Source of the DNA: an uncultured Bacteriovoracaceae bacterium
Lineage (GTDB): Bacteria > Bdellovibrionota > UBA1018
Direction of reading: 5' to 3'
Assembly: GCA_964467785.1 (NCBI GenBank)
Contig: CAYXVB010000002.1
Coordinates: 1 to 50,990, forward strand
Length of the DNA: 50,990 bases
Shown here: positions 1,328 to 48,030 of the stretch, in pieces
Layout: each line of letters begins with the position of its first letter
How positions within the stretch are numbered: position 1 is the first letter of the stretch
The notes under the pieces: model-generated
What the model saw: only the letters and a program-made list of their open reading frames with translations
The model's database searches: none
Told to the model about the DNA's origin: nothing
Made by a program: the position numbers and the translations under genes

Positions 1328-1374
1328 TCGCTGCGGACCGCGGGCAAGGAACACCCCTTGCTTCTACCCGCGTC

Positions 1375-1935: not shown

Positions 1936-1944
1936 CCACAGCCC

Positions 1945-2355: not shown

Positions 2356-2461
2356 TTCTAGGCTCCCCTGTTGCGCTGCGGACGGAAATGTTTGGGCTAT
2401 GGACTGCGGCTGTGTCCTTCAAGCTTAAAGAATCCGCGGCGGAGATTCAACAGGGCTCGTC

Positions 2462-4990: not shown

Positions 4991-5000
4991 CGCGGTCGCG

Positions 5001-7043: not shown

Positions 7044-7050
7044 CCGCCGG

Positions 7051-8157: not shown

Positions 8158-8385
8158 GCACCGGACCCTATAGCACAGCTCCCCGCGCCTGTCTGGCTCC
8201 CATTGGAGACCCAGGCAAGGTCCAGGTCGTTGATCTGATTGGGATGTCGCCCGGGTCAGCCCGGACACAGTTGCACGCCCGATGAGGGTAAACTATCCTT
8301 AAATCAAGAACTCAGGAGCGCCGTTGTGCGTTTGTTAACCGAGCAGCCTCTGCTCGAGCTCCCGGGAACCCAGGAACTAGAATTT

Positions 8386-11928: not shown

Positions 11929-11993
11929 GCTTGAGACTGATCGGCAAAGGTGCTGCGTAGTTTAAGGGAAATCTTTACCGGAGGCAGGCCCCG

Positions 11994-12782: not shown

Positions 12783-12823
12783 GGCTCAGATGGATACCAT
12801 ATCGCGCAGTCCGAGGAGAACTG

Positions 12824-17169: not shown

Positions 17170-17198
17170 TTGCCCCGCTCCCAAGGAGTTGATTCCCT

Positions 17199-18407
17199 TC
17201 ACGGCAACCAGACCCATCCCATGCGGTTTTTAAGCAGCATGTACTTTTCCAAGATACGCTTTCCGATGTTAAAGAAAACATTGGGCAACATCAGCTCAAA
17301 GCGCCTGGGCTTGAACAAGTGGTCCGTGAGGATCCAAACCTCTTTCTGGCCGGCGTCCATGATGCAGATACCCGGGATTTTGCCAAAAGCCATCGATCTG
17401 TATTTCGTGCCGCCGCTGATCTTCTCGGCGATGTTGTGCGCGACGATCTTGCCTTGAACGTCGCTCGGAAAACCCGTCTTCGGAACCCCAAACGGAACCG
17501 CGCAGCCCTTGAACGGCGCCTTGACCTGCACGGAGAGCCCGGCGGCGTAGACGTTGTCGAATCGGCTAGACTGATAGGTTTCCTCGCAGGGCACGAATCC
17601 TTTTCCGTCCACGAGCTCCGACGATGCCTTCATGACCTCGGCCCCCTCGAACGGAGGTATCAGCATCGACATCTTGAACGGCAGCTCTTCGCCACCCGCG
17701 AGACGGATCTTTCCGGCTTCGATCCGGTCGATGCTCGAGTTCACTCGAAAGCGCATGTCGAACATCTTCATAAACACGTTCAACATCGTCTCTCCGCCCG
17801 TGATTCCGCCGATCCCGAAATGCCCGAGCTCCGGCTCCGGCGTGATCCAAGTGATCGGCACTTTTTTGCGCACACCCCGCAAGCGAAGCTCCTTCTCGAG
17901 ATTGAAAAGAAACTCGTAGGCCGCGCCCATGCAGCTCGCGCCTTGCGTCGCGCCGACCACCACCGGACCCGGGTCCCGCACCAGGCGCTCAAACGCGCTC
18001 CGGCACTTCAAAGCCATTTCCGGGGTCACGATACCTTCCACGTGCTCCATTCCGGGAACCGTCAAAAGGTCGAGGCTCACGCCGCTTGCGACGACGAGGT
18101 AATCATAAGGAATCTTGTCGCCCTTTGCCGTGCTGACTTCCCGCGCGTTCGGGTCCACGCGGGTCGCCCGATCTTCGACGAACCGGATCCCATGCCGCGA
18201 GAGCACCGGGCTGATCGGAAACGAGATCTGATCGATCTCCCTGCGGCCAAAGGGAACCCAGATCAGCGAGGGCACATAGAGAAATCGATCCCGGGGCGCG
18301 ACTACCCGGATCTCATGCGCGATCCCTTTGCGCCTGAGGTTTCGCGCGAGCGAAACCGCCGCCGTTGTTCCCGCAAAGTTAGCGCCCAGCACGACGATCT
18401 TGTTCAT
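17199..18407 (-). CDS. FAD-dependent pyridine nucleotide-disulfide oxidoreductase, sulfide:quinone oxidoreductase-like
   Basis: ATG 18407 gives MNKIVVLGANFAGTTAA, a Rossmann GxGxxG-type fold. Size and layout are SQR/NDH-2-like, with FVPCEETYQS and YAAG near the C-terminus. The track N-terminal extension is Arg/Gly-rich junk. Confidence 0.65.
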   Translation of the reverse strand: MNKIVVLGANFAGTTAAVSLARNLRRKGIAHEIRVVAPRDRFLYVPSLIWVPFGRREIDQISFPISPVLSRHGIRFVEDRATRVDPNAREVSTAKGDKIPYDYLVVASGVSLDLLTVPGMEHVEGIVTPEMALKCRSAFERLVRDPGPVVVGATQGASCMGAAYEFLFNLEKELRLRGVRKKVPITWITPEPELGHFGIGGITGGETMLNVFMKMFDMRFRVNSSIDRIEAGKIRLAGGEELPFKMSMLIPPFEGAEVMKASSELVDGKGFVPCEETYQSSRFDNVYAAGLSVQVKAPFKGCAVPFGVPKTGFPSDVQGKIVAHNIAEKISGGTKYRSMAFGKIPGICIMDAGQKEVWILTDHLFKPRRFELMLPNVFFNIGKRILEKYMLLKNRMGWVWLP

Positions 18408-18579
18408 GCCTTGATTATAAGGCCTGGAATTCGTCACTGGCCAGCCCCTTCCCGCGCGGCCCGACCGACAATAACCTGACGGGCCCCTGCCCGCGCGCCC
18501 GCTTGTGGGCGAAATATTTCCCATTCCCCTTTCGGAACCCGTCCGAAATCCGAAAAGCTCTCGAAGGAGTCGAGTCCAG

Positions 18580-34173: not shown

Positions 34174-35013
34174 TTAATCCAGCTCGAGCGACGGCCCGCC
34201 CGTCCAACGGACTTGCGCGAAAACCGCGATCCCACGAGGGTTGATGTTCGAGGCATAGCTTCCCGCTCCTAGCGCGTAGGACCATGCACCCGACTGATAA
34301 CGCCCGAAAGCGCCGGCGAAATCTCCGGACTGGCGGGTGCCCACCATCTGATCGCCCATATAGAGCGCGCCCATCAGCCAGGGCGAAGCAGCGGCCCTGT
34401 AAGTCAGCGCCAACGTCGTGCTGACACCGTGATCGCCGCCCTGCAATCCCACCAACGAGAGCGTCTCGTCGTAAAACACGGACGAATTCTCCGAGGGGAT
34501 GAGCATCCCCAATTGGACGTTGCCCGCAAAAACAACTCCCGCATGGCCCAGCAGCAGTGAGGCCCCCGCGTAAGGCGAGGAGATCGAACCCAGGCAAGCG
34601 GCATAGGCACAGTCGCTCACGCCTCCACTGGACCAGCGCTGGCTCACGGCATAGCCGCCACGAAGGCCCACAAACGAGATCGGGTGCAACTCAAGCGACG
34701 CATCCACGCGATTGATCAACCCGGAGGTACGCAGCTTCGCGGAGCCTCGCATATAACCGTATTTGATCTCACCGCTCTTCTTCTCGCCCCAGAGCAGGGT
34801 GCCGTATCCAAACTCAACGGTCACGGAGGCGCCTAGCGGAAGATTACGCACTCCGACCGAGACGCCGTGGTCCGCCTTCCACGCGCCCGGCAGCACCGGC
34901 GCGTCGGGCACGTCGGGCGTTTCGGCAGCGGCCGAAAATTCCAGCGGAAATAGCTGGAGGACCGAGAGCGCCAGGCACAACGGAACAAAGCGGAGCGGTT
35001 GGAACGACGTCAT
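34174..35013 (-). CDS. outer-membrane beta-barrel-type protein (GltA/GltB-size class)
   Basis: Signal peptide LCLALSVLQLFPLEFSAAA. Shows an alternating Gly/aromatic-rich strand pattern. 279 aa. Confidence 0.55.
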   Translation of the reverse strand: MTSFQPLRFVPLCLALSVLQLFPLEFSAAAETPDVPDAPVLPGAWKADHGVSVGVRNLPLGASVTVEFGYGTLLWGEKKSGEIKYGYMRGSAKLRTSGLINRVDASLELHPISFVGLRGGYAVSQRWSSGGVSDCAYAACLGSISSPYAGASLLLGHAGVVFAGNVQLGMLIPSENSSVFYDETLSLVGLQGGDHGVSTTLALTYRAAASPWLMGALYMGDQMVGTRQSGDFAGAFGRYQSGAWSYALGAGSYASNINPRGIAVFAQVRWTGGPSLELD

Positions 35014-35221
35014 TCCGCATCGATACCACGCGCGGTCGCCGGATGCGTTGAAAATTTGACATCCGCCTCTCCCGGACCGTCACGGTTCTGACTCACGCGT
35101 GCGGCCAAATGATCTTTTCCGGCTGAATTACTTTCAAAATAATTCTCTAATCGGCGTCCGAGTTTACAAACCGCCACGGGGTCACTAAACTGAAAGACAT
35201 AAACTCCTGACGGACAGGGCT

Positions 35222-35989
35222 TTGCGATTCACACGGAGCGTGAATGTGACTTTTCCCAGACGAAGCAGATGCTTCTCTCCCCGGACCCAGCTGCTGACGC
35301 CCGCGATCTCGCTGGCCATCTCGCTGATGGCAAGCGCGCCTGCATTCGCGGCGGGCACGCCGCTGGATCCCGGACTTCGGACCGACGACAAAGAGTCCGA
35401 GGAAATTTCCAATGTCTTCAAAGACATGGGTGTCGTGCAGAAACGCTCGATGCCCAAGGGCGGGCGATTCCTCTTCTCCACTTACGGCAGCTTCGACTTC
35501 TCCGACGGGCCCTTCACCAACTACTCGCTCAACATCAATCCGGGCTACGCCATCAGCGACTTCTTCGAGATCTACATCAACTATGTACCGATGTTCATCA
35601 CGCAGGCGCGCTCGATCAACGACCAGTTGGCGACCCTCACCGTCTACAACGCCGCCGGCCTGCGGGTCACTCCGTACATCACGGCGTCCTTACCCAAGAG
35701 TCAGATCGGTGCCGAGTTTCTATGGGCTCCCGCCTACGGCAAGGACAGCCTGGGCATCCGAACCGTTCTCCGCAGCGACACCTTCATCAAAATCGGCGTC
35801 GCGCAGACCACCTACGACACCGATACCGGCCTGCGCTTCGTGGCCGGCGTCGGAAAGACGTTCTTTCTCGGTCGCCACGCAGGCCTCCGTGTCTGCGTGA
35901 ACGCCGGCATGGTGCAGAACACGATCAACAACCAGAAAGCCTTCCGAGCCGTGACGCTTCTGGAAACCGGCTTCAACATCTACCTCTGA
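35222..35989 (+). CDS. outer-membrane beta-barrel-type protein, first gene of TolQR-type operon
   Basis: Signal peptide ...AISLAISLMASAPAFA, alternating-strand pattern, C-terminus GFNIYL. The start is uncertain (TTG 35222, GTG 35240 or GTG 35246). Confidence 0.55.
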   Translation: MRFTRSVNVTFPRRSRCFSPRTQLLTPAISLAISLMASAPAFAAGTPLDPGLRTDDKESEEISNVFKDMGVVQKRSMPKGGRFLFSTYGSFDFSDGPFTNYSLNINPGYAISDFFEIYINYVPMFITQARSINDQLATLTVYNAAGLRVTPYITASLPKSQIGAEFLWAPAYGKDSLGIRTVLRSDTFIKIGVAQTTYDTDTGLRFVAGVGKTFFLGRHAGLRVCVNAGMVQNTINNQKAFRAVTLLETGFNIYL

Positions 35990-36006
35990 GCTAGGAGACC
36001 TCCCGC

Positions 36007-36648
36007 ATGATGGACGCAATCGATACCCTTTGGAAACACGGCGGCTTCGCCATTTACTTGATCTTCATCGCGGCGGTGACGCTGGCCATCGTCGGCAGCG
36101 AACGCCTCATCACCCTCTATCTGAGGATGTCCTACGACGTTAAGGCGTCCATCGAGAGCGTGCGCGCGCTGATCCTCGAGAAGAAATACACGGACGCGCT
36201 CCAGGTCTGCAACAAACAGCCCTACGCCCCCGAGATGCGGATCATCAAGGCCGGCCTGATGGCGGTCGAGAACGGGCGCGAAGCCATGAAGTCCGCGCTG
36301 GGCGGCGCGGTGCTCGAGATCACCCACAAGTGCGAGAACCGCGTGAGCTACCTGGCCCTGATCGCCAACGTTGCGACCCTCCTTGGCCTCCTCGGCACGA
36401 TCAGCGGCCTGATCAAGACCTTTGCTTCGATCGCCAACGCCGACGCGGCCGAAAAAGCCAAGATGCTCGGCATCGGGATCTCCGAAGCCATGTACGCCAC
36501 GGCCGCGGGCCTCGGCGTCGGCATCCTCGCGATGGTCGTGCATACGCTGTGCACCTCCAAAGCTGACGCCATCATCGGCACTTCCCAAGACCCCGGCCTC
36601 AAGCTCGTGACCTGGGTCGAGCAGTCGGAGCGCGCGACCCGCTCATGA
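36007..36648 (+). CDS. MotA/TolQ/ExbB-family proton channel (AglR/TolQ-like)
   Basis: Three TM helices with the conserved segment LALIANVATLLGLLGTISGLI and GISEAMYATAAGLGVGILAMV. Confidence 0.88.
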   Translation: MMDAIDTLWKHGGFAIYLIFIAAVTLAIVGSERLITLYLRMSYDVKASIESVRALILEKKYTDALQVCNKQPYAPEMRIIKAGLMAVENGREAMKSALGGAVLEITHKCENRVSYLALIANVATLLGLLGTISGLIKTFASIANADAAEKAKMLGIGISEAMYATAAGLGVGILAMVVHTLCTSKADAIIGTSQDPGLKLVTWVEQSERATRS

Positions 36649-37151
36649 TTGACGGAATATTCGAAAAACGCCATCGCCGGCACATCAAGGACCTCAACAT
36701 CGTCCCCATCCTGGACATGTTGACCACGGTGATTTTCTTCCTGCTCATGTCGACGAGCTTCCTGGAATTCACCAAGCTGACCGTGCCGCCGTCGCAGACG
36801 ACCGCGGCCTCGGGCGCGGCGACCGCGCCGCCGCTCTCGCCCAAGCTCGTGCTCGTGCAGCGCGCGGAAGGGCTCAAGCTGCTCCTCACCTGGGGTGGCG
36901 CGGCTCCCGGCGAGGCCATCGAGACACTGAAGGCCTCTAATCCGGACGAGCGCCGGGAACGGGTCCTCGAAGCCAGCCGCAAGCTGGTCGAAGCGTTCGC
37001 CAAAGAGCATCCTTCCGAGAAGACGCTGCAGCTCGGCCTTGGCGCCCGGATCCCCTATCAAGACCTGATCTCGGCGATGGACGGGGCGCGTGAGACCCTG
37101 CCCGACATCGTCCTGATCTCCCATCACGAAGCGGAGGCGCGCGCCCAATGA
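36645..37151 (+). CDS. ExbD/TolR-family protein, paralogue 1
   Basis: N-terminal LNIVPILDMLTTVIFFLL TM with the conserved Asp. ATGA overlap with the upstream gene. Confidence 0.8.
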   Translation: MIDGIFEKRHRRHIKDLNIVPILDMLTTVIFFLLMSTSFLEFTKLTVPPSQTTAASGAATAPPLSPKLVLVQRAEGLKLLLTWGGAAPGEAIETLKASNPDERRERVLEASRKLVEAFAKEHPSEKTLQLGLGARIPYQDLISAMDGARETLPDIVLISHHEAEARAQ

Positions 37152-37648
37152 GCCTCGGTAACAACGAACTGATCGTGCGCCGCCACCGCAAAGAGCCGCT
37201 CGAGCTGCAGCTCACGGCGATGATCGACATCTTTTCGATGATCGTCATTTTCCTCATCTTCGGCACCGTCTTCGGCGCCGCGGACATCGTCGTACCAGGG
37301 AGCATCAAGGTCCCAAAAAGCGTGAGCAAGGAAGGCGCGGAAAGCGCTCCCCGCCTGGTGCTCGACGCCAACGAGGTGATGTTCAGCGGCTCGGGCGAAA
37401 AAGCGCCGCTCTCCTGGTTCAAGGGCCAGGACGAGGACTCCCGCGCTAAAGCCGACGCCTTCAAGGGACGAATCAGGGAATACGTCGCAAAGCTGCCCGA
37501 AAGCGCCAAGGGCTCGGGAGTGCTGCTCAACGTGATCGCCGACCAGGACACGCCGTACGAGGATGTCTTTAGTGTGATCCGCGTGTTTCGCGAGGCGGGC
37601 TTCCAGTCCCTGCTCTTCGTGGCCACCGGGGAAGGAAAAGCCAAGTGA
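37148..37648 (+). CDS. ExbD/TolR-family protein, paralogue 2
   Basis: LQLTAMIDIFSMIVIFLIF TM with the conserved Asp, and a C-terminal ...VIADQDTPYEDVFSVIRVFREAG typical of ExbD/TolR. ATGA overlap. Confidence 0.8.
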   Translation: MSLGNNELIVRRHRKEPLELQLTAMIDIFSMIVIFLIFGTVFGAADIVVPGSIKVPKSVSKEGAESAPRLVLDANEVMFSGSGEKAPLSWFKGQDEDSRAKADAFKGRIREYVAKLPESAKGSGVLLNVIADQDTPYEDVFSVIRVFREAGFQSLLFVATGEGKAK

Positions 37649-38910
37649 ACTCACGATCGAGGCGCGCCGGACTCCCGTCCCGACTTCTCGTCTCCGCCTG
37701 CGCGGTGGCGACCGGTTGCTGCGCCTCGACGCTCCTCCACCCCGCGAGCGCCCTCGCGGCCCCTTCCGCCACGGCGGCGCACCCGGCTCAGACCCGCCGG
37801 GTCCCCACTTCGGTCCTCTACGACCAGGCAGTTTCATTCGTCAAGGCGGAGGACTACCTCGGTCTCCGCGTGTTCGTCAAAAAGCTCTACGCCCGCCAGA
37901 TCACCTACGGCGAGTGGTTTCGGATCAAGGGCCTCGTCAATTCGCAGGCCCAGAACATCGGGCTGGACATGATCAATGTCTGGAACTTCCGCAATCCCGG
38001 CGCCAAGAGCAACCTGGACAAGACGCTCGAGTACGCGGATTCCCTCATGCTGGCTGAAAAGTTCGAGCCGGCGTTCGTCGAGTACCAGAAGATGGCCCAG
38101 TACATCAAAAAGAACCTGGCCCTCCTCGCGTCCAAAGACATCCCATCCTGGCAGGAGCGCAAGCGCGACCTCGCCTCGCTCTATCCGTTCGTGCTGCATT
38201 CAATGGGGCGCGCCCTTTACGGCGCCGGCCGGTACGATGAGGCGGTCACAGTCTATCGCTGGATCCCGCCCATCTACGTCCGGTACCGGCAGACCCTTTT
38301 TGAGCGGATGTGGGCCGCGTTCCGCGCCGGCGACGTCAATTGGACGCTGGGAGCGATCGCCTCGCAGCGCGCTTCGTTCTTCTCAGCTTACCTTTCGCCC
38401 GAGACCTACCTGATCCAGACCTACATCTACCGCAAGCTCTGCCGCACCGGCGAGCTCAATGAAGTCGTCGCGGAGCTCAAGCGTTACCAGGACGCCCTGG
38501 CCCGCGGATCCACCGCGGAATGGGCAGGCTCGGACCTGGAAACGCGCATCCTCTGGAGCCTGGCCAACGGCGTGCCCCGCGACGTCGAGGCGACCGCCCG
38601 CCTGATCAGCCGAGCTGAAAAAGAAAAAGAGCAGAAAGAGATCCGCGCCGCGCTTGATCGGGCTTTTGCCGTGGCGCGCCCCAAGCTGCTCGGCGACATC
38701 AAGATGGTCCTCGCCTACTCCTACATCGCCGGCGCCAGCGACTCGAGCGCGATCCTTCGGCCCATCGAGTCCCTCAAAAGCCGCGAGCAGCTCATGAAGC
38801 TCGACATGGAAGTCTGGCCCGCGGAGTCGACCGAGGAATGGGCCGACGAGATCGGCAAGCACTACTTCATCGGGGAGAGCAAGTGCGCAAGCGCCAAGCC
38901 ACAATCGTAA
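37645..38910 (+). CDS. probable envelope lipoprotein, helical-repeat (TPR-like), GltE/GltC-class candidate
   Basis: GTG start in a GTGA overlap. Possible lipobox LLVSAC. Helix-rich with TPR-like LYGAGRYDEAVTVY. Confidence 0.55.
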   Translation: MNSRSRRAGLPSRLLVSACAVATGCCASTLLHPASALAAPSATAAHPAQTRRVPTSVLYDQAVSFVKAEDYLGLRVFVKKLYARQITYGEWFRIKGLVNSQAQNIGLDMINVWNFRNPGAKSNLDKTLEYADSLMLAEKFEPAFVEYQKMAQYIKKNLALLASKDIPSWQERKRDLASLYPFVLHSMGRALYGAGRYDEAVTVYRWIPPIYVRYRQTLFERMWAAFRAGDVNWTLGAIASQRASFFSAYLSPETYLIQTYIYRKLCRTGELNEVVAELKRYQDALARGSTAEWAGSDLETRILWSLANGVPRDVEATARLISRAEKEKEQKEIRAALDRAFAVARPKLLGDIKMVLAYSYIAGASDSSAILRPIESLKSREQLMKLDMEVWPAESTEEWADEIGKHYFIGESKCASAKPQS

Positions 38911-41900
38911 TCCTCGCCTCCCTCTCCGCGCCCCGGGCGTGGAGCGCTGGAATGGACTCGAGCTTCCTGAAGTCGAAGCCCGCGACCGGCCCGCAGGTCT
39001 CGCAAGGACAGCCCGCGAACAGCGGAAAGTCCAAGGCGGTCACGACCAGCGGCCGTGGAACTTTCAAGACGGAGATCCAGGGCGACGTGACCCCGGGCGC
39101 GAAACCCATTTCGCCGGAAGTCATCCAGAGCATCACTCTCATCCTGAATTCGACAGCCGATCCGCTTTACCGCAACACGTTGCTCTTGAACCGCAGCACG
39201 TCCTTCAATCTCTACGTCCGGCAGCGGCTCCTCGCCGGAAAGGATCTGCGGATCGACGACGTGGGGATGAAGTACCTGCAGGCCGCGGTCAACGACGCCA
39301 ACGCGGTCTATAGCTCGCCGCGGGCCAGCGCCGAGCAAAAACAACAGGCGCTCTATCTCCTGGGCATTTCTTCGGTTTATATGGACCGCAACAGCGAAGC
39401 GCGCGAGAAGTTCATCGAGCTCCTGCGGGTCAATCCCAACTTCAAGCGCGCCGGATGGCTGGCGCTCTTCATCGCCGAGGACTACTTCGAGCAGGCCGAC
39501 TTCAACCAGGCGATGGCCTATTACCGGAACTTCTTCAGGCAGATGAACCCGCACAGCCGGGAGGTCGCGCTCTACAAGATCGCCTGGTGCCTGATCAACC
39601 TCAAGTTCAATGACCACGCCGAAGGCGTCTTCGTCCGCCTGATCCGCACCGCCGGCGCGAAATCCGGCCTAGGCAAGGATTCGGTCCGCGATCTCGCCTT
39701 CCTGGTCGCCCACCGCAAGGATCCGTCCGGCGTCGTCGCCTACGCCGAAGAGACCTTCACCGAGATCGGAACGCGCCTGGAGTTCCTCGAGTATGTCCGC
39801 GTCAGCTTCGAGGACCAGAATCTCGTCGAGCTCCACTCGCAGGTCATCCAGACGATGCTGGCGCTTGAGAAGGCGCCCGAGAAGCGCCTACTCCTGCTGA
39901 TCTCCGATCTCAAGGTCCATCGCAAGCTTTACGCCGCGCGGACCCACTACGCTTCGTTCCAAAAACTCGAGGAATTCCTCCATAAAAACAAACTGGATCT
40001 CGGCTCGCGCCAGCTCAGCCCCCACGCCCAGGAGCTCGAAGCCGAGCTGCAGATGCTCATCAAGAGCTGGGTGGACACCTACGCCGGCCGCACCAAGACT
40101 CCCGAGACGCTCACCCGCGAGGAGATCGCGGTGGGCCTCAAGCACCAGTTCGAGACGTTTGTCAGGCATCTGCCCAAATCGCCGCTCCGTCCGCAGATCG
40201 TCAACCTCTGGCTCGACACCTGCGTCGACACCAAGGATTGGCCGTCCATCGACCGGGTCGCCGATCTCGTGCTCGAGTCCCCGGCCGAATTCCCCAAGCT
40301 GCTAGAACGCGCCGCGCTCGACCAGCTCGCCGCCCTCAACGAGCTCGTCAAGCCGGGTACGCCGGCGTCCGGGAGCAATTCCGAGCGGGACCTCGAAAAA
40401 ATCGCCGAAAAGCGCCTCCTGCGGATGAAGACCTTCGTGGAGCGCCACCGGCAATCCGATCAATGGTTGCGCATCGCGCGCGCCTACGCCGAGATCCTGG
40501 GAGAGCGCAAGCAGATCCCCGAAGCGATCGTCGTGCTCGAGCAGATTTTCGTCAAAGATCCGACCCCGGATTCGTTTTATCGCCTGCAGTTCGCCAAGTT
40601 CCAGAACGGCCAGTACAAGGACGTCATCGCCGAGCAACGTGTTCCTCGCCCGGCTGCTCCCGGCAGTTCGCCACTGCCCCCCGACAAACGGGTCACCGAC
40701 CTCCTGCGGGAAAGCTCGCTCGCGCTCGCGATGGAATCCCGTAAAAAGGACGACCTCCAAGGCTATACCGAGAACATCCGCCGCTTCTTGTCGCTGGCGC
40801 CGGACGAAAACAAGGCTGGTCTCGCGCGCTCGGACTACTTCCGTTATCTGTTGGAAAAGAACGAGGTCAAGCGCGCCACTTCCGAGATGGCCGCGCTGCC
40901 CGAGACACTGCGGACATTGCCCGCGCTCGCGGAGCTCACGGCCCAGGCCTGGCGCCGGAATATCGACAGCGGACAGTTCGAAGCGGCGGCGCAGCTCATC
41001 ACTTCCGTGCCCGCCCGCGGTCCGCTCACTCCGGCCCTGCGCCCGCAATGGACGCTGGGGCAGGTCCTGCTGGGTCGCCAGCTCACGGTGCGCGAGCTGG
41101 CGCTTCTGCCCAAGCAGGAGCAGGAATATCTCGTCGCGGTGTTCGCGCTGAGCCAGCCGCTTCGGGTGATCGAATTCTACGAAACCGAGAAAAAGGCCGC
41201 GCGCGCCCAGGCGGACCGCGATCTTCTGGAGCTCGCGTGGCGGATTCACTCGGGCTCCTGGGCCATTGAACGGACTGGCCGCACCGAGAACTTGCTCGGC
41301 CGCGACTATCCCTTCGTCCGGGCCTCGTCGACCCAAGCTCTCAAGGTCGAGAACCGGATGAGCCGTCTCGAGTACCCGACCGCGAAAACGCCTGCCGCGA
41401 AGTTCGCCAAGCTGATCGAGGCCTTGGTCGTGGAGGTGCAAAAGATCCGCGCGGACGTCAACAAGGAGCTCTCCGGCCAGCCGCCGGAGACCAAACTCCG
41501 CGTCCTCGAAAAGGCGCGCGATATCGAGCGCAAGATCGCCGAAGCCATCCTCAACTCGCCCATTCCCAAGGAGGTAGGCGCCGGCCAGCTCGAACAGTAT
41601 AGAGGCGCCCTCAAGGAAGCGGCCCAGGAGTACGTGAGCCACGGCGAGCAATACGAGAAGCTGGCAAACACGCTGCGCGAGAGAGTCTCGGACGAAAAGC
41701 GCAAGGAGCTGAGCCGAATCATTCCCGCCCCCTCCGCTGGAAAATGGCGCTGGCCCGGGATCGCCTCCGATCCGCCGCTTTCCTCGCTCAAGACGATGCT
41801 CGCCCAGGGCAACACGGCCGGCGCGCTCGTGCTCATCGACCTCGTGCGCGAGGCCCGCGCCAAGTCGGGACATAATCTGGACGACGCGGACTACTTCGCG

Positions 41901-42107
41901 CTGCGCGCGGGCGCCCTGCTCTCGGGGCGGCCGCCCCACCCCACCGAGGCGGATCGGATCTACGTACTGAACGAGCTCGAAAGCCGCGGCATGAACTCCA
42001 TCATCCTGGAGTGGCGCAAGATGACGGGCCTTCTTGAGAAGCCCGAAGCCAAGCCCGAAGCCAGCCCCGAAGTCAAACCCGAGAATGAAGGGAGCCCCTC
42101 GCCGTGA
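38883..42107 (+). CDS. large periplasmic helical-repeat/TPR-like protein (about 1,074 aa), GltD-class candidate
   Basis: GGGGAGAG lies upstream of GTG 38883, which gives VRKRQATIVILASLSAPRAWSA, a signal peptide. Long Ala/Leu/Glu/Arg helical-repeat composition with TPR-like FEQADFNQAMAYYRNF. KPEA-type tail. Confidence 0.65.
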   Translation: MRKRQATIVILASLSAPRAWSAGMDSSFLKSKPATGPQVSQGQPANSGKSKAVTTSGRGTFKTEIQGDVTPGAKPISPEVIQSITLILNSTADPLYRNTLLLNRSTSFNLYVRQRLLAGKDLRIDDVGMKYLQAAVNDANAVYSSPRASAEQKQQALYLLGISSVYMDRNSEAREKFIELLRVNPNFKRAGWLALFIAEDYFEQADFNQAMAYYRNFFRQMNPHSREVALYKIAWCLINLKFNDHAEGVFVRLIRTAGAKSGLGKDSVRDLAFLVAHRKDPSGVVAYAEETFTEIGTRLEFLEYVRVSFEDQNLVELHSQVIQTMLALEKAPEKRLLLLISDLKVHRKLYAARTHYASFQKLEEFLHKNKLDLGSRQLSPHAQELEAELQMLIKSWVDTYAGRTKTPETLTREEIAVGLKHQFETFVRHLPKSPLRPQIVNLWLDTCVDTKDWPSIDRVADLVLESPAEFPKLLERAALDQLAALNELVKPGTPASGSNSERDLEKIAEKRLLRMKTFVERHRQSDQWLRIARAYAEILGERKQIPEAIVVLEQIFVKDPTPDSFYRLQFAKFQNGQYKDVIAEQRVPRPAAPGSSPLPPDKRVTDLLRESSLALAMESRKKDDLQGYTENIRRFLSLAPDENKAGLARSDYFRYLLEKNEVKRATSEMAALPETLRTLPALAELTAQAWRRNIDSGQFEAAAQLITSVPARGPLTPALRPQWTLGQVLLGRQLTVRELALLPKQEQEYLVAVFALSQPLRVIEFYETEKKAARAQADRDLLELAWRIHSGSWAIERTGRTENLLGRDYPFVRASSTQALKVENRMSRLEYPTAKTPAAKFAKLIEALVVEVQKIRADVNKELSGQPPETKLRVLEKARDIERKIAEAILNSPIPKEVGAGQLEQYRGALKEAAQEYVSHGEQYEKLANTLRERVSDEKRKELSRIIPAPSAGKWRWPGIASDPPLSSLKTMLAQGNTAGALVLIDLVREARAKSGHNLDDADYFALRAGALLSGRPPHPTEADRIYVLNELESRGMNSIILEWRKMTGLLEKPEAKPEASPEVKPENEGSPSP

Positions 42108-42475
42108 CGCCAAACGCCTGGACGTACGCCGCATTCGCACTGCTCTTTGCGCTCGTCTCGCCGCCGTCCGCCCTGGCCGAGGCTCCCGCCGGCCAAACGC
42201 CGCAAAATCAAGGCGCTCAAGGCCAAAACGTGCAGGGCCAAAACGCGCAAGTCCCAAACGCGCAGGCCCAACCGGCCAAATCCAAGAGCCAGGCCAACGT
42301 CCTGGATTTCGAAGGAGACGTGATCGAGGGCCAGAAAAAGACGCCGGAGATCTTCCTTCAAACCGAGGTCGAGCGCCCGACACTGGACACGGTGCTCTAC
42401 CAGCGCCGCCACTTCAACGATTTCCACAAGAGCGACAGCCGGCAGCGCCCCCGCGCTTCCGACCCGCCGAGGTGA
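42104..42475 (+). CDS. small secreted protein with (xQxxQ)5 repeat, GltF-class candidate
   Basis: GTGA overlap start. Signal peptide YAAFALLFALVSPPSALA. Gln/Asn-rich pentapeptide repeats. Confidence 0.55.
   Translation: MTPNAWTYAAFALLFALVSPPSALAEAPAGQTPQNQGAQGQNVQGQNAQVPNAQAQPAKSKSQANVLDFEGDVIEGQKKTPEIFLQTEVERPTLDTVLYQRRHFNDFHKSDSRQRPRASDPPR
42191..42265 (+). repeat. five tandem 15-nt coding repeats
   Basis: The units ggccaaacgccgcaa / aatcaaggcgctcaa / ggccaaaacgtgcag / ggccaaaacgcgcaa / gtcccaaacgcgcag encode GQTPQ NQGAQ GQNVQ GQNAQ VPNAQ. Confidence 0.8.
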
Positions 42476-42482
42476 TTCACCG

Positions 42483-44261
42483 ATGAGAGTCCTCACCATC
42501 TCCCGAAGCAAGCTTGAGATCACACGGGCCCAACTGACCCGGCCCTTGATGACCATCGGACGCTCTCCCACCTGCGACGTCATCCTGCGCGCTCCAGGCA
42601 TCCGGCCTTTCCACTTTCTGATCGAGTGGATCGGCGAAGGCGCCTTCGATCCCAACCGTGGAGCCTGGTCGATCACCGACCTATCTACTTCCCAGTCGGG
42701 ACCGATGGCCGAAGGCAGCGAGCACGGCGAGGGCCAGATTCTTTCCGAAGACGCCGTCCAACTGGGAGACCTCACGTTCAACGTGGTGGATGACCGCCTC
42801 GAAGTGCGCGAGGACATCGGCGGCACGATCGGCGCCAATCTCCAGGGGAGCCACAAACACGGAACCGAACTGCTCGAGCTAGTCCAGGTTCGGCTCGACT
42901 CCGGCGCCATCGAGGAGATCAAGCACTTCCCGATCGTCCGCAAGACCCGGGTCCTGAAACCTCTCGGAAAGCACCGCAATTTCCGCATCGAATGGCAAGG
43001 TAAGAACAGCGCCACTCTGCTCAAGGTGCTCCTGGACGAGATGCCGGGCGCCGAGACTTTCAAGCGCGGCATCCGGATCCATCCGTCCCAGCAGGTCGAC
43101 GTGCTTCCCCACGATGTCATCCAGGTCCGCTGGCAGAGCCGCGACTTCTACCTCCGTTTCGTGTCCGAGATCAAATCCCCGCCGATCCCTCGCGAGGTCA
43201 TGGACCCGCTCCTGCGCCGGATCACGGTAGGCGTATTGCTTTCGACTCTGATCCTGCTCGCGCTGATCCGGCTCAACGCTCGCTACAATCCCCCCCAAGA
43301 GCCCAAGCCCAACCTACGCGTCGCCACCGTCGAGCTTCCGGCACCGCCCAAGGCCATCGAGACGCCCCCTCCTCCGCCGGTCGCGCCCCAGGAAGTCGCG
43401 ATCAACAAAAAGGCAGAGGCCCCGGAACCAAAACAGGCGCCTCAAAAAACGGACGAACCGATCCAGGTCGCGCCTCAAAAGCGAAACGCGTCGCCGGCCA
43501 AGGCCTCAGCGCCGCGCTTTGAGACGGCAAACTCCGCCAAGCCCAAAGCCGGCCTTAATTCGCCCGGCAAGCCCGCGGACGTCAACACCGTCGGTGTCCT
43601 CGGCGCGCTCAGCAAGCTCTCCGCCAAGGGCAAGGGTGTACGCGCCGACCAGGTGCTGAACGAAGGCATCATCACCGAGTCGGTTTCGGCGCCCGAGGGC
43701 GGCTCCAAGATCGTGGTCCGCAACCCGCCCGCCGGAGTGCTGGGCACAGGCACGGGCGGCTCCACCAAGGGCGAGGGCACACAGAATCTCGCGGCTGCTT
43801 CGACCACTCTCCAAGGCGCCGGCAAGTACGACCCCAACGCCGTAGGAGCGGTCGCGCGAAAAGGCGGCGAAAGCGGGATGAGCCTCGGCACCGATCTCAC
43901 TGGCCAGGGTTCCGGTTCGAGCGGCCTGGGCTCGCTAGATGGCGCGGACTTCAGCGTCGAAGGCGGAGGCCTGGACCGCGAGACGGTCCGGCGCGTGATT
44001 GCATCTTATCGCGGCGCGATCCGCACCTGCTACGAGCGCGCCCTGCTTTCCAACCCAAGGATGGCCGGCCGCATCGTGTACCACTGGCGCATCAGCCCGG
44101 ACGGGCCCGTTGTCACGACCAACATCAAGTCGGCGACCTTGGAGTCCGACAGCATGAAGGCCTGCGTGAGCGACGTGATCAGCAAGATGATGTTCCCGCG
44201 CGCGCCCAACGGCAAGGCGACCCAGGTCATCTATCCGTTCGTGTTCCAAGGTAAAAAATAG
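42483..44261 (+). CDS. FHA domain - TM - Pro-rich linker - TonB-C-like (AgmX/PglI-type C-terminal domain) protein, GltG-class candidate
   Basis: N-terminal FHA-like MTIGRSPTCDVILRAPGIRPFHFLIEW...WSITDLSTS. TM helix ITVGVLLSTLILLALI. Pro/Lys/Ala-rich PPKAIETPPPPPVAPQE. The C-terminus GGLDRETVRRVIASYRGAIRTCYERALLSNPRMAGRIVYHWRISPDG...MKACVSDVISKMMFP matches my recollection of the AgmX/PglI C-terminal domain. Confidence 0.75.
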   Translation: MRVLTISRSKLEITRAQLTRPLMTIGRSPTCDVILRAPGIRPFHFLIEWIGEGAFDPNRGAWSITDLSTSQSGPMAEGSEHGEGQILSEDAVQLGDLTFNVVDDRLEVREDIGGTIGANLQGSHKHGTELLELVQVRLDSGAIEEIKHFPIVRKTRVLKPLGKHRNFRIEWQGKNSATLLKVLLDEMPGAETFKRGIRIHPSQQVDVLPHDVIQVRWQSRDFYLRFVSEIKSPPIPREVMDPLLRRITVGVLLSTLILLALIRLNARYNPPQEPKPNLRVATVELPAPPKAIETPPPPPVAPQEVAINKKAEAPEPKQAPQKTDEPIQVAPQKRNASPAKASAPRFETANSAKPKAGLNSPGKPADVNTVGVLGALSKLSAKGKGVRADQVLNEGIITESVSAPEGGSKIVVRNPPAGVLGTGTGGSTKGEGTQNLAAASTTLQGAGKYDPNAVGAVARKGGESGMSLGTDLTGQGSGSSGLGSLDGADFSVEGGGLDRETVRRVIASYRGAIRTCYERALLSNPRMAGRIVYHWRISPDGPVVTTNIKSATLESDSMKACVSDVISKMMFPRAPNGKATQVIYPFVFQGKK

Positions 44262-44290
44262 TGAAAAAAAGAGTGTGCCTTGTGAAGGCA
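44253..44290 (-). terminator. weak putative intrinsic terminator for PilZ gene
   Basis: On the minus strand, TGCCTT-CAC-AAGGCA (44290-44276) is followed by CACTCTTTTTTTCACTATTTTTT. The stem is only 6 bp. Confidence 0.35.
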
Positions 44291-44321
44291 ACCCCGCCCG
44301 CCGCAGCGAGAGCGCGCTAGG

Positions 44322-45167
44322 TCAAGCTGCTTTCTTCTTCGAAGCCTTGTCCGCCGCCAGGATCCATTGCTCCAGCTTCTTAAGGCTCGACTCGGACGCA
44401 TCGACAAATCGCACGCGAAGCGGCGATTTCGGGTCCGGGAACAGCCGGCACTTGAGCTCGATGTTCTCGGCGGCAAACGGCGAGCCGATGAACACATGGC
44501 AGGCCTGGTTCCACATCTCCTCGGGCGGACGATGCTTAAGCTTCATCCCACCGATCGAGATGTCGTGGCTTTGGCTTCGGAAACTCTTGCCCTCGGCCGT
44601 GAGGATGACGCGGAATGGGAAGTTATAACGGACGGATTTGCGCTGTTCGATGCTTGCGACGACCGGGGCCGCGGGCGCAGCCTCTCCCACGGACGCCACC
44701 GGCGCCACAATCCCGCCCGCATCGGGCGCGACCTCAGGCTCGGAAAGCCCGGGCAGCTCCTGGGGTTCTTGAACACTCGGGGCGTTCGGCAAATTCTGCA
44801 AATCCGAAGCGGGTAAGCTGGACTGGACGACAATCGGCGCAGGCACGGGCTCCGACTCTTGAGCCTTCGATTCGGCCGGCTTCATTTCGTCGGAGGGCAT
44901 CGCGGCCACGGGAGCCGAAGCCAACTTGGATGGATTCGCAACGGAGTCCGCCCGGATCCCCGGCGACTCGCCTAAAAGGCCCCACTGTCCATGGCAGTGC
45001 GTCTTAAGAACCTGCAAAAAAGCGCGAGCCGCGACCACATCGCCCTTGAAGCGTATCTTGGCCCCGTCTTCATGATTCGAAAATACCCAAGTTTGAGACG
45101 ACATATCAGGGTACTGATCGGAGGAATCCGAAACAATCATGAGAGGTGTCATCCCTGACACCGTCAA
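44322..45167 (-). CDS. PilZ domain protein (c-di-GMP receptor type)
   Basis: The C-terminal domain has RKSVRYNF (RxxxR) and SHDISIGGMKL (D/NxSxxG). An N-terminal ~70-aa domain is followed by a Pro/Ala/Ser/Glu-rich linker. Confidence 0.75.
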   Translation of the reverse strand: MTVSGMTPLMIVSDSSDQYPDMSSQTWVFSNHEDGAKIRFKGDVVAARAFLQVLKTHCHGQWGLLGESPGIRADSVANPSKLASAPVAAMPSDEMKPAESKAQESEPVPAPIVVQSSLPASDLQNLPNAPSVQEPQELPGLSEPEVAPDAGGIVAPVASVGEAAPAAPVVASIEQRKSVRYNFPFRVILTAEGKSFRSQSHDISIGGMKLKHRPPEEMWNQACHVFIGSPFAAENIELKCRLFPDPKSPLRVRFVDASESSLKKLEQWILAADKASKKKAA

Positions 45168-45192
45168 AAAACAGAACTGACCTGGATTTTCC

Positions 45193-46566
45193 TTACAAAT
45201 TCAGCTGGAGGCCGAGGCTGGCCGTACGCAAGCCCACCGCGCTGACGGAGTTGACGTTGGTTAAGGCGAGGTCGGAAAGGTCCAGGGTCACCGCGATCGG
45301 CAATCGAGCCTTGGGAGACGTGACCTGGTAGGAACCGCCAACCGCGAGCTCCCGATTGCCCAAGATCATGCGGCCACTATCGATGATTGGGGCGAACTTG
45401 ACGTACAGGGCCCACGCCCGGCTCCCTGGCGTCGCGCGAAAGACCGCGAGATTGACCTGAGGTCCGACTAGCTGGGCCAGGCCATAGTTCGCGCTCGCCA
45501 CGCCCATGCTCCAGAAGTACCAGCCCGCCAACATCCTCACCTTGGTCTCCAACCGGAAGGGCAGCGTGTACCCGACGCGGCCGTTGACGCCGAGGAACAT
45601 CGCGGGCGAAGCCGTGTTTCCGCCGACCAGCCCTTGAAACGTCGTTCCAAAGGCCGCGACATTGGCGTAACCGCTCAAACCGAGATCGAGCTTGCCCGGC
45701 AACAACTGGTACGCGACGCCGCCCTTCACCGTCGCGGCGTACTGATTGACGGACATGGTCGACGACTCCGTCTGCGTATACGTCATCGTGGTGCCGCCGA
45801 TGCCAAAGAAAAAGCTCAGTCGCTTGGCGTAGCTGTAATTGATGTCATAGACCACTTTGCCGCGACCATTGAGCGTCGCGACCGTGTAATCCCCTATCTT
45901 GTTCGCGCCCGTCACCGGCTTGGCCGGAAAAGCGACACGGAGCAAATCCGCGCGCGGATGGGGACTCTTTTCCGGCAAAACAGATCCCCGCTGAAAGCTC
46001 GCGTCTCTCGAGCGGATCACGTGCAAGTTGGCGCCGGTGGGAGACTTTTCGCACCAAATCGCGTGGTAAAGGTAGTTCGCGGTGATGCCGCGACCGGGTT
46101 CCGATTCGCGCGGATGAGACGAAATATCCAGCGAGCCGCAGCTCGGATGAACGATGGCTTCGGGGGTCGGCGACACCACCAATACGCCGAAATCGAATTC
46201 AAGCTGCTGGCCGGCCGCGTTCATCACCGTCAAACGCGCGTTGGCCTGAATAGACTGCGTGGAGATCTCCAGGCGGTCTCCTTCAATGCGGCCTTCGAAC
46301 TGCGGGTTAGTGATCTTGAGGATGCGCGACTTTCTCGATGGCGTGACGGAAACGCGCAGCACGGGCTCCTGCATCGCGGCCTGCCCTCTGACTGAGCGCC
46401 AATCCCACCAGACCTTCGTAGGCCAGTCGAGCGGGACGCTCTTACCCTGCTTGTTGACGAAAATCAGCTGAACCCGCGGGGTGGTCCGCGTATCGATCGC
46501 GGCCTGAGACTCGGGGCCCCCCAAAAGCCCGACCGAAAAAGACAACGCGGCAGACCGCAAAATCAT
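45193..46566 (-). CDS. outer-membrane-type protein (N-terminal soluble domain + C-terminal beta-barrel-like region)
   Basis: ATG 46566 gives MILRSAALSFSVGLLGGPESQAA, a signal peptide. The C-terminal half has an alternating Gly/aromatic strand pattern ending LGLQLNL. Confidence 0.55.
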   Translation of the reverse strand: MILRSAALSFSVGLLGGPESQAAIDTRTTPRVQLIFVNKQGKSVPLDWPTKVWWDWRSVRGQAAMQEPVLRVSVTPSRKSRILKITNPQFEGRIEGDRLEISTQSIQANARLTVMNAAGQQLEFDFGVLVVSPTPEAIVHPSCGSLDISSHPRESEPGRGITANYLYHAIWCEKSPTGANLHVIRSRDASFQRGSVLPEKSPHPRADLLRVAFPAKPVTGANKIGDYTVATLNGRGKVVYDINYSYAKRLSFFFGIGGTTMTYTQTESSTMSVNQYAATVKGGVAYQLLPGKLDLGLSGYANVAAFGTTFQGLVGGNTASPAMFLGVNGRVGYTLPFRLETKVRMLAGWYFWSMGVASANYGLAQLVGPQVNLAVFRATPGSRAWALYVKFAPIIDSGRMILGNRELAVGGSYQVTSPKARLPIAVTLDLSDLALTNVNSVSAVGLRTASLGLQLNL

Positions 46567-46824
46567 CTTTCCTACAGCGCATACTGCACTTTTTCGGGTT
46601 CTCAATTCCATGAGGTGCTATCCGTCCAATTTCGAACTTTCTTTAAGGATAACACCAAGCATATCGAAGCGAAGTAGATTCTTTAACCGCTTCGGCCGAG
46701 GTTCTGAATCGTCCATGAGATCGCGCGGGGTCCAACTGGACACAGCCGGATCGTGGGCACCAATGAATAAATACCATTGAAGATATTGAAGCCGACTCCC
46801 GTCGCTTTTTTGACGGCCCAACGC

Positions 46825-47334
46825 TCAGGCGCTACGCCACTTCCCTCCCTCCTCCGGCGGAGCGAGCGCTTCGAAGCGCTCTTTGATCGCTCGAAAGAAC
46901 CGGCGCTCATAGTACGCCTTGAACCAGGCCAAAGCCGCAAATCCGATTCGATCCCGCACCCGGTATCCGCCTTCCCATTTAATGAGGGCCTTGCCTCCAT
47001 AAAGCGCGCGAAAGTAAATCCTTCCCCCACCGGCTAAGGGATGCTGATCCGTCGTCTCGTATTGGATGTACCGGGGCTCAATGACTTCAATGATCCGGTA
47101 CTTGACCGTTCGATGCAGCGGGCCGAGCTTGTACGTCACCTCGATGATCGCGCCCCGAACGAACGCCGGACCCACTGCCGGGCCGGTTGACCGAATAAGT
47201 CGCGACTCCGAGAGCTCCCTTGGCCAAATTGAGGAGTTCGACGAATCGGCCAGAGCCGAGACGATCAACGCAAAGCTCCGTCTCTGATCGGTAGGACAAA
47301 TCCAGTCTTCCGAGAATCTCACCAGGCGAGTCAT
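46825..47334 (-). CDS. SRPBCC (START/polyketide-cyclase-like) family protein
   Basis: From ATG 47334 (MTRLVRFSEDW...). The pattern ...VTYKLGPLHRTVKYRIIEVIEPRYIQYETTD...GGGRIYF is typical of this fold. Confidence 0.5.
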   Translation of the reverse strand: MTRLVRFSEDWICPTDQRRSFALIVSALADSSNSSIWPRELSESRLIRSTGPAVGPAFVRGAIIEVTYKLGPLHRTVKYRIIEVIEPRYIQYETTDQHPLAGGGRIYFRALYGGKALIKWEGGYRVRDRIGFAALAWFKAYYERRFFRAIKERFEALAPPEEGGKWRSA

Positions 47335-47338
47335 GCAC

Positions 47339-47542
47339 TCAGGCGGACTCCTTGATCTGCTGATTCTCATGACGCGCCTGGCCCGCGATCCGCGCAAAAC
47401 CCGAACGCAAGGTCTCGCCGAAGCTTCCCTTCAATAGCGGCGTCGACACGCCGCGAGACTCGGCAAACTGCTGTAAGCGAAATCGGTTCTTCCAGACGAC
47501 ATAGCTTAAGCCGCTCAGCACGGCCAATCGTATCAACCGCAT
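47339..47542 (-). CDS. small hypothetical membrane protein
   Basis: 67 aa with N-terminal TM helix IRLAVLSGLSYVVW. Its stop lies 5 nt before the next start. Confidence 0.4.
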   Translation of the reverse strand: MRLIRLAVLSGLSYVVWKNRFRLQQFAESRGVSTPLLKGSFGETLRSGFARIAGQARHENQQIKESA

Positions 47543-47698
47543 AAATTAAGTCCTTTCCGCAATTTTTTGACGCCGATTTGCGCAAAAGAAAAGCAACCGC
47601 CATGCCGCGAAAAATTCCCCGATAAATAGCAACAACACGCATACGGTGACGAACGACACATTTACAATCCGATGGCCGCCTGATTACAATCAGACTCG

Positions 47699-47983
47699 AT
47701 GATGATGCAAGCGACCTTCATTCCTGACGGCTTTGACGTCTTTCCGACAATCTTTCTGCAGTCGGGATTTCCGCTCAAACTCTCGGTCTACATCTGGACC
47801 GTCCGCAAGGACGTTCCCCCCGTTTTGTTCCGCGCGCGAGGGTCAGTGCTCGAACTCGACGAGATGCTCTCGCTCCGCAAGCTCTCCGATCGCCAGGTCC
47901 TCGCGCTCAGATGTGACATTCTCGAAGCGATGGAGTACTACGAAGAAGACCCGCTCTACAGCCCCCAAAGAAATCAACGCTGA
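47699..47983 (+). CDS. hypothetical small protein (94 aa) upstream of ATP-grasp gene
   Basis: ATG start with an ordinary composition and acidic/aromatic C-terminus EAMEYYEEDPLYSPQRNQR. 47 nt upstream of the ATP-grasp gene. Confidence 0.45.
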   Translation: MMMQATFIPDGFDVFPTIFLQSGFPLKLSVYIWTVRKDVPPVLFRARGSVLELDEMLSLRKLSDRQVLALRCDILEAMEYYEEDPLYSPQRNQR

Positions 47984-48030
47984 ACTTCAGGCCCGCTGAA
48001 AAACCGTACCCCGCAACCGGAGCCCGCATC

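Follow-up and report, generated by a model that had tools for sequence, protein, structure and literature searches.

The closest described relatives of the gene cluster considered here are the Agl/Glt-type machines of Myxococcus xanthus and Bdellovibrio; the cluster lies in a contig of an uncultured Bacteriovoracaceae bacterium (NCBI CAYXVB010000002.1), the whole of which, 50,990 bp, is called the window below. The core of these machines, aglRQS together with gltC, gltD, gltE, and gltG, occurs in some Gamma- and Betaproteobacteria, Geobacter, and Fibrobacter, and gltF, gltA, and gltB are found only in Myxococcales and Bdellovibrionales (Luciano 2011, PMC3169522). Four clusters are catalogued in Bdellovibrio bacteriovorus HD100 (Bd0414–0420, Bd0828–0838, Bd1474–1481, and Bd2369–2376; PMC3169522 Table S3), holding homologues of AglR/Q/S, GltD, GltG, GltB, and GltC, with GltF at least in Bd1474–1481 (PMC3169522) and GltE missing from three of the four (PMC3169522 Table S3). 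One gliding operon is headed, on its 5′ side, by the PilZ gene Bd1482, which encodes a candidate receptor of cyclic di-GMP (c-di-GMP) (Hobley 2012, PMC3271064), and bd1480 (aglQ) is induced on surfaces (Lowry 2022, PMC9140294). For M. xanthus, AlphaFold modelling has given a chain running from AglR5QS through GltG (by its transmembrane (TM) and FHA parts), GltD, GltF, and GltC to GltA/B (2025, PMC11761067).

The window encodes exactly the links of this modelled force path, and no further part of the M. xanthus machinery was found in it. The assignments rest on curated NCBIfam models and on profile–profile alignment (hhalign) with a reference locus of the gltABCDEFGH type (L006, described below); they relate the genes one to one, in support of the Agl/Glt- or Nfs-like machine named in the original prediction made from the DNA alone. 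The cluster very probably encodes a trans-envelope machine of the Agl/Glt family, and taken as a whole it is likely to be best explained as a force-transmission machine of that family in a Bdellovibrionota bacterium, of the type of the Bdellovibrio 'gliding' clusters. The novelty first attached to it was overrated, because the arrangement is already published: the Bdellovibrio gene set has been catalogued since 2011, and the window is a further example.

In the gene map, all 11 open reading frames (ORFs) of the region stand at the coordinates given earlier. Eight form a plus-strand string (35222–44261), flanked by minus-strand ORFs at 34174–35013, 44322–45167, and 45193–46611. The tight packing of the operon was read as described, with ATGA overlaps at 36645 and 37148 and GTGA overlaps at 37645 and 42104; such start-stop overlaps suggest translational coupling, but they do not fix stoichiometry, as the original prediction had supposed. 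Matches to Pfam and NCBIfam also bear out the MotA_ExbB, two ExbD, TPR (421-aa and 1,089-aa proteins), FHA, and PilZ domain calls. The nine genes that we assign to the system are as follows.

35222..35989, plus strand: probable GltA/GltB-like outer-membrane beta-barrel, 255 aa (TIGR04565 OMP_myx_plus, E=2.8e-12)
36007..36648, plus strand: AglR-like proton-channel subunit of the TolQ/ExbB/MotA family, 213 aa, three TM segments (PF01618, E=6e-25)
36645..37151, plus strand: TolR/ExbD-like stator subunit 1, AglQ/AglS-like, 168 aa (PF02472, E=1.7e-8; ATGA overlap with the upstream gene)
37148..37648, plus strand: TolR/ExbD-like stator subunit 2, AglQ/AglS-like, 166 aa (PF02472, E=3.1e-13; ATGA overlap)
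37645..38910, plus strand: GltC-like periplasmic TPR/helical connector, 421 aa (NF033756 GltC, E=2.8e-9; GTGA overlap)
38838..42107, plus strand: GltD-like large TPR/helical periplasmic protein (Pfam matches to TPR only; hhalign match to the L006 D gene)
42104..42475, plus strand: secreted protein of 123 aa, putatively GltF(CglF)-like (NF033764 CglF, E=0.0017; GTGA overlap)
42483..44261, plus strand: GltG-like transducer, 592 aa (FHA PF00498, E=7e-7; NF033768 AgmX/PglI C-terminal domain)
44322..45167, minus strand: PilZ-domain protein, up to 281 aa (PF07238, E=1.3e-7)

Counterparts of the Agl/Glt components

Against the AgmX/PglI C-terminal domain model the transducer, of 592 aa, scores 88.9 bits, above the cut-off of 40, and its tail matches GltG at E=4.9e-27 (94.8 bits, equivalog cut-off 650) and GltJ at 1.1e-12; the corresponding hhalign value for the L006 G gene is 99%. 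After the cytoplasmic FHA region, hydropathy and composition indicate one TM helix at about residues 245–264 and a Pro/Ala/Gly-rich linker. An AlphaFold2 (AF2) model of the last 139 residues (454–592) has a mean predicted local distance difference test score (pLDDT) of 82, mostly above 90 in the folded part, and the top 20 PDB fold matches of this predicted structure are the C-terminal domains of TonB, TolA, HasB, or FusB. Among them is 6sly, the closest match reported for the GltJ tail (PMC11761067). A PDB sequence search with the full protein gave nothing useful. The protein combines FHA region, TM helix, linker, and an AgmX/PglI C-terminal domain of TonB/TolA type.

In the motor, the channel protein shows three hydrophobic segments by hydropathy and one TM segment is seen in each ExbD-like protein. 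The channel protein matches TolQ/ExbB sequences of the PDB at about 2e-6, and its motifs LLGLLGT(I)SG and EAMYATAAGL are conserved across four loci. When subunit 1 is aligned with E. coli TolR, NIVPILDML pairs with NIVPLLDVL, so that an Asp falls where TolR has its TM Asp, and the TM segment of subunit 2 carries a conserved Asp (AMIDIF); both Asp residues are kept across four loci. The two subunits are distant paralogues (hhalign, 85%), and a PDB sequence search with subunit 2 returned only spurious titin matches. Against the NCBIfam equivalog models the channel protein scores 55.7 bits for TolQ (cut-off 221) and 39.1 for ExbB (cut-off 206), and the TolR equivalog is matched at 18–20 bits (cut-off 127). 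The operon is equipped with two distinct TolR-like subunits, each having a protonatable TM Asp, and with a predicted three-TM, TolQ-like channel of putative AglR type that is encoded together with the transducer genes.

The large helical protein has two candidate starts, ATG 38838 (1,089 aa) and GTG 38883 (1,074 aa), of which the second is most likely the true one; a GGAGAG Shine-Dalgarno-like sequence precedes it and a signal-peptide-like N-terminus follows, and the figure of about 1,074 aa in the original prediction arose because this start was taken. In NCBIfam searches at E up to 10, the protein reached no family at its curated cut-off and matched only generic TPR models, apart from a weak match to YbgF/CpoB. 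The D-type protein of L006 likewise matches only the generic TPR models, and profile–profile comparison was therefore used: the alignment with the L006 D gene reaches 95.4% over 488 columns (95.9%, E=5e-9, on repetition) and includes a family-invariant YK(L/I)AWC motif. The protein is thus a putative GltD-type TPR/helical protein within the size range of about 1,000–1,200 aa, related at profile level only.

The GltC model is matched by the 421-aa protein over a part of its length (about 105 residues, 36.2 bits against an equivalog cut-off of 450) and by all six of its orthologues (best 1.1e-12), and the profile aligns with the L006 C gene at 90.5%. It can be classed as a GltC-type TPR connector, shorter than GltC itself. 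The candidacy of the same protein as GltE was rejected, since GltE was matched by none of the six orthologues, GltC by all six, and hhalign gave about 1% with the L006 E gene. It has a signal peptide, and the LVSAC string behind its description as a probable lipoprotein is indeed present; the lipoprotein itself is doubtful, as the orthologues have no conserved cysteine at that place. Two stretches outside the GltC-model match characterize this family, a strongly conserved C-terminal motif, WPA.S.EEW.DE(I/V)G.H.F(I/M)GES.C, and an invariant central block, FRQ..FE(K/R)MWAAFR.G......LG(A/S)IASQ.S.

The small secreted protein consists of a signal peptide, a Q-rich spacer, and a conserved module, VLDFE..IEGE..P..F....LY.R.NFNDFH. 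CglF is the sole family matched, by four of five orthologues, consistently but weakly (best 7.4e-6; 18.3 bits against a cut-off of 90 for the window protein); the profile of the small protein aligns with the L006 F gene (82%), which occupies the same place, between D and G. The 255-aa barrel, the single such barrel at the locus, scores 46.9 bits against TIGR04565, under the curated cut-off of 60, and its profile aligns with both the A gene (92%) and the B gene (72%) of L006. It begins with a signal peptide that ends AFA|A, and its C-terminus is YL/YF; its true start is probably GTG 35240 or 35246.

The reference locus itself was reached through a distant match of the transducer search. It belongs to an ENA metagenome contig (cluster at 1124–12978) and comprises, according to NCBIfam, eight genes for two OMP_myx_plus barrels, GltC, a 1,071-aa TPR protein, GltE, CglF, GltG, and CglE. 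This complete gltABCDEFGH/nfs-like cluster, of myxobacterial type, stands directly upstream of a gene whose product has a Pfam Ribosomal_L3 domain. Because its Glt equivalog scores are all under cut-off except that of CglE, L006 probably represents a paralogous cluster (Nfs/G-type) from an uncultured member of the Myxococcota. The profiles built from the window proteins and their orthologues form a clean hhalign diagonal against it, and nothing matches E or H.

Recurrence of the gene string and its PilZ companion

Six other Bdellovibrionota/Oligoflexia loci (L001/L004, L002, L003, L008, L009, and a JGI contig) keep the same order: the barrel gene comes first, then those for the MotA_ExbB protein, two ExbD proteins, TPR proteins of about 380 and about 1,000 aa, a small protein (about 95 aa), and, last, an FHA/TonB-like one (about 580 aa). 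In L009 the small gene was left uncalled and was found by tblastn. The barrel is the first gene of the string in all relatives (38–53% identity); identity is 54–74% for the TolQ-like protein in the five loci with DNA and, at the low end, about 25% in the large TPR protein. Because it recurs in six other loci, the gene string is not a chance arrangement.

The closest loci in a one-genome-per-species set of GTDB come from three metagenome-assembled genomes (MAGs) labelled Bdellovibrionota, Pseudobdellovibrionaceae, and Bacteriovoracaceae, and named matches to the transducer or motor are MAGs of an "Oligoflexia bacterium", a "Bdellovibrionales bacterium", a "Bdellovibrionia bacterium", and a "Bdellovibrio sp."; no cultured strain is present among the GTDB loci or these matches. 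In metagenomes the family is spread over 58 transducer clusters with near-full-length matches and, for the motor protein, 1,298 clusters at E<=1e-10. For the GltD-like protein, an exhaustive profile search gave 154 family representatives at E<=1e-30, against 5 by protein-database search. A variant GltG locus was also seen in a Logan assembly (L007, 6473–12669), encoding an 859-aa TPR protein, a 101-aa protein, a LolA-like protein of 179 aa, a 685-aa FHA/GltG-like protein, and a 203-aa OMP_b-brl barrel; it adjoins a T2SSE ATPase gene, and no motor genes were present within the 14 kb fetched.

The PilZ gene orthologous to 44322–45167 adjoins the operon in every related locus, either upstream and divergent or downstream and convergent. 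Because it is conserved at every locus examined, the PilZ gene belongs with the operon. Both motifs of the domain, RxxxR (RKSVR) and DxSxxG (DISIGG, of the (D/N)xSxxG type), are intact and are conserved in the six orthologues with sequence, so that the protein, with its PilZ fold, is a putative c-di-GMP receptor. The balance tips slightly toward control of the motor by c-di-GMP through this protein. At two of the related loci the gene directly beside that for PilZ (13935–15302 in L008 and 1027–2361 in the JGI contig, 3300059473) encodes a response regulator/HD-domain protein, which its HD-GYP-like PF13487 HD_5 domain marks as a possible phosphodiesterase of c-di-GMP. A full che gene set is found near the operon of L008.

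Four further features border the nine genes.

34174..35013, minus strand: secreted, beta-rich protein of 279 aa, divergent from the operon, with a signal-peptide-like N-terminus
35014..35221: divergent intergenic region with two sigma-70-like hexamer pairs (plus strand, 35163–35191; minus strand, 35137–35109)
44276..44290, minus strand: terminator-like hairpin (pattern match) within the 60-bp convergent gap between operon and PilZ gene
45193..46611, minus strand: secreted protein of 472 aa, co-directional with the PilZ gene and 25 nt upstream of it, with a signal-peptide-like N-terminus

In 13.8 kb, two sigma-70-like hexamer pairs were seen against 1.9 expected, both of them within 35014–35221; their location alone is suggestive of promoters there. 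Sites resembling terminators show no enrichment in this region, and the counts of both scans equal chance. Rfam searches of the whole window, with a permissive search of the promoter region, found no riboswitch, including those of the c-di-GMP or cGAMP type, and a tRNA search of the window found none. Beyond the 472-aa gene, about 1.4 kb (46612–48030), up to an ATP-grasp gene, hold only short ORFs with no family matches, and the lowest G+C of the contig, 0.566, falls in 46001–48000.

Proposed mechanism and output

Following the M. xanthus structural model, we propose that a pentamer of the TolQ-like protein (36007–36648) surrounds the two TolR-like subunits (36645–37648), which both have the TM Asp, and that together they would turn proton flow into movement, the machine thereby using the proton motive force. 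The GltG-like protein (42483–44261) would touch this motor by way of the TM helix and the FHA region in the cytoplasm, its long Pro/Ala/Gly-rich linker would cross the peptidoglycan, and its TonB-like C-terminal domain would dock on the GltD-like TPR protein. The GltF-like protein may then bridge the TonB-like domain to the GltC-like connector, which in turn would grip the GltA/B-like outer-membrane barrel by its N-terminus in the periplasm. Coupling of the motor to c-di-GMP would be provided by the PilZ protein, and the output would be slow surface gliding. The contacts in this chain and the target of the PilZ protein are predicted by analogy with M. xanthus.

As the cellular output, slow surface gliding as in Bdellovibrio is the likeliest candidate, though our confidence in it falls a little short of even. 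Several points weigh against this and the wider reading. The core alone has been argued to be insufficient for motility, and paralogous clusters with other functions exist, for example Nfs (PMC3169522); a 2026 review states that the gliding machinery of Bdellovibrio has not been experimentally identified (PMC13104615). GltE, GltH, GltK, GltI, GltJ, and a CglB-type adhesin, essential for gliding in M. xanthus, were not found in the window, nor did Pfam scans detect a vWA, GYF, or giant TPR protein there; in particular, no window protein or orthologue matches NF033758 (GltE) or the L006 E gene. Furthermore, the scores against the GltG, GltC, and CglF equivalogs given above are all far under their cut-offs. 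Because every Glt equivalog score is below cut-off, the Glt-like proteins are, by sequence, distant family members and not orthologues of the M. xanthus gliding proteins; with these low scores and without a GltH-type match, the window does not encode the M. xanthus gliding apparatus proper.

The same machine, with the same mechanics, might instead serve an output other than locomotion, such as Nfs-like handling of a surface polymer or coat, attachment to or invasion of prey, exit from prey, or tethering of the outer membrane; we regard this as the main rival, with limited confidence. Nfs, a Glt paralogue, drives spore-coat assembly with the same motor (PMC3858216). The paralogous clusters are not redundant, and the core is found in non-gliders, where it has no assigned function (PMC3169522). 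The window cluster is devoid of an adhesin and of GltE, GltH, GltJ, GltK, and GltI, and since HD100 has four such clusters, some of them must serve beyond one gliding behaviour. However, the operon has no genes for making or exporting polysaccharides next to it, either in the window or at the related loci, Bdellovibrio does glide and its gliding-cluster genes are surface-responsive (PMC9140294), and Nfs clusters lack motor genes of their own, which the window cluster has.

More doubtful is an extended version of the force-transmission reading, according to which the nine-gene unit would be a distinct and smallest self-sufficient Agl/Glt force path, consisting of one motor, transducer, hub, bridge, connector, and barrel, not orthologous to any HD100 cluster and widespread in uncultured Bdellovibrionota/Oligoflexia. 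The PilZ protein would then be a c-di-GMP clutch or brake acting directly on the stator or on the FHA region of GltG, as YcgR acts on the flagellar stator.

It is unlikely that the unit is one of eleven genes, in which the 279-aa and 472-aa proteins would be partners specific to this lineage, placed in the outer membrane or at the surface (for example a second barrel and an adhesin-like cargo). Both have signal-peptide-like N-termini and beta-rich sequences, the former according to a DSSP assignment of a poor model and the latter by a reading of its C-terminal half, whose alternating hydrophobic pattern is compatible with beta strands; the 279-aa gene has a divergent promoter region in common with the operon, the 472-aa gene lies close upstream of the conserved PilZ gene in the same direction, and the additional outer-membrane parts of M. 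xanthus (GltH, GltK, and CglB) are missing here. Against this, neither protein has a counterpart in five related loci or a match in Pfam or NCBIfam, the single-sequence AF2 model of the 279-aa protein is uninformative (pLDDT 36), and both were rejected as homologues of GltA, GltB, or GltH for want of hhalign similarity; the 279-aa protein likewise has no hhalign match to the neighbouring 255-aa barrel. The two genes are probably outside the system. Because these two proteins have no counterpart, family match, or A/B/H-type likeness, the functional unit is therefore drawn as nine genes, from about 35222 to 45167, against eleven originally. Within the divergent pair of barrel-like proteins said to open the cluster, the 255-aa member thus stands, as GltA/B-like, and the barrel nature and membership of its 279-aa partner are unproven; in the convergent pair, the PilZ protein is confirmed as a conserved companion, whereas the outer-membrane nature of the 472-aa protein (earlier given as 457 aa) is unproven.

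An ordinary Tol-Pal or TonB-ExbBD system of merely unusual appearance is highly improbable and largely refuted: TolQ, TolR, and ExbB are the nearest motor models, PDB sequence matches are to TolQ/ExbB for the channel protein and to E. coli TolR for one ExbD-like protein (none for the other), the transducer ends in a TonB/TolA fold, and the large TPR protein shows its weak YbgF/CpoB match, but the motor scores fall far under the TolQ, TolR, and ExbB equivalog cut-offs, there are two TolR paralogues, an FHA transducer that passes the AgmX/PglI model rather than being TonB, and GltC-, GltD-, and GltF-like partners, and Pfam scans of essentially all sizeable ORFs of the contig and of the flanks of the related loci found no TolB, Pal/OmpA, or TonB-dependent receptor domain (neither Plug nor TonB_dep_Rec). 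The predictions that the 592-aa protein is not a canonical TonB with a receptor, tolB, or pal nearby, that the 421-aa and approximately 1,080-aa proteins are related to GltC and GltD, and that the orthologous loci, having the same architecture, are not Tol-Pal or siderophore-uptake loci have thus held.

The same scans showed the contig otherwise to encode IleRS, TrmO, TGT, HrpB, a major facilitator superfamily (MFS) transporter, cyclic-nucleotide proteins, a T2SSE ATPase, and others. A 680-aa protein (5001–7043, minus strand) joins a complete queuine tRNA-ribosyltransferase (TGT) domain (E=1e-139) to a C-terminal PF05430 (MnmC-type) S-adenosylmethionine (SAM) methyltransferase, possibly an unusual case in which two activities of tRNA modification are fused. 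Cyclic-nucleotide genes specify a cyclic nucleotide monophosphate (cNMP)-binding protein (4373–4990, minus strand), a fusion of PP2C phosphatase and cNMP-binding domains (15931–17217, minus strand), and a class III cyclase with GAF (18505–21009, plus strand). An 827-aa surface-type protein with Big_9/cadherin-like character (8239–10722, plus strand) is convergent with a stand-alone T2SSE (PilB/PilT-type) ATPase (10723–11928, minus strand).

Comparison with known systems

No new kind of system is added by this locus. What the locus and its relatives do reveal is a single compact operon, corresponding exactly to the force-path links of M. xanthus and always beside a PilZ gene, that is retained in many lineages of uncultured Bdellovibrionota/Oligoflexia. 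[quoted passage not shown]

The machine is worth comparing with five described systems. With the Tol-Pal and TonB-ExbBD systems it has in common the motor superfamily, the TM Asp of TolR/ExbD, a Pro-rich transducer ending in a TonB/TolA-type fold, and a YbgF-like TPR partner, and it is distinguished from them by two TolR paralogues and the cytoplasmic FHA region of the transducer. The core complex of Luciano is likewise a single operon of the motor with GltC, GltD, and GltG (PMC3169522), whereas the window locus adds a putative GltF and a probable A/B-type barrel and is without GltE; the term 'minimal core' in the original prediction is therefore inappropriate, since the presence of GltF-like and GltA/B-like genes corresponds to the 'expanded core' of Luciano, as in Bdellovibrio. 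Nfs (NfsA–H) and L006 are collinear with the window in the order C-D-(E)-F-G, with profile-level matches for A/B, C, D, F, and G, but loci of that type carry E and H and no motor of their own (M. xanthus Nfs uses a separately encoded AglRQS motor; PMC3858216), whereas the window locus has its motor and neither E nor H.

The Agl-Glt apparatus of M. xanthus itself resembles the window locus in its TolQ-like and two TolR-like subunits, GltG transducer, GltD hub, and GltC connector, and its GltF bridge and OMP_myx_plus barrels have putative counterparts at that locus; here, in contrast, one barrel is recognizable and not three, motor and transducer are encoded in one operon and not in three loci, and a PilZ gene is a constant neighbour. 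The nearest likeness is to Bd1474–Bd1482 of HD100, which comes from the same phylum, holds PilZ, AglR/Q/S, GltD, GltF, GltG, GltB, and GltC in a compact locus, and, by comparison of the parts lists, is without GltE, GltH, GltI, GltJ, and GltK, as here. The two differ in gene order, B-R-Q/S-Q/S-C-D-F-G in the window and, from the locus tags, R-Q-S-D-F-G-B-C in HD100, and in the sizes of GltC (421 versus 713 aa), GltG (592 versus 488 aa), and GltD (about 1,080 versus 1,237 aa).

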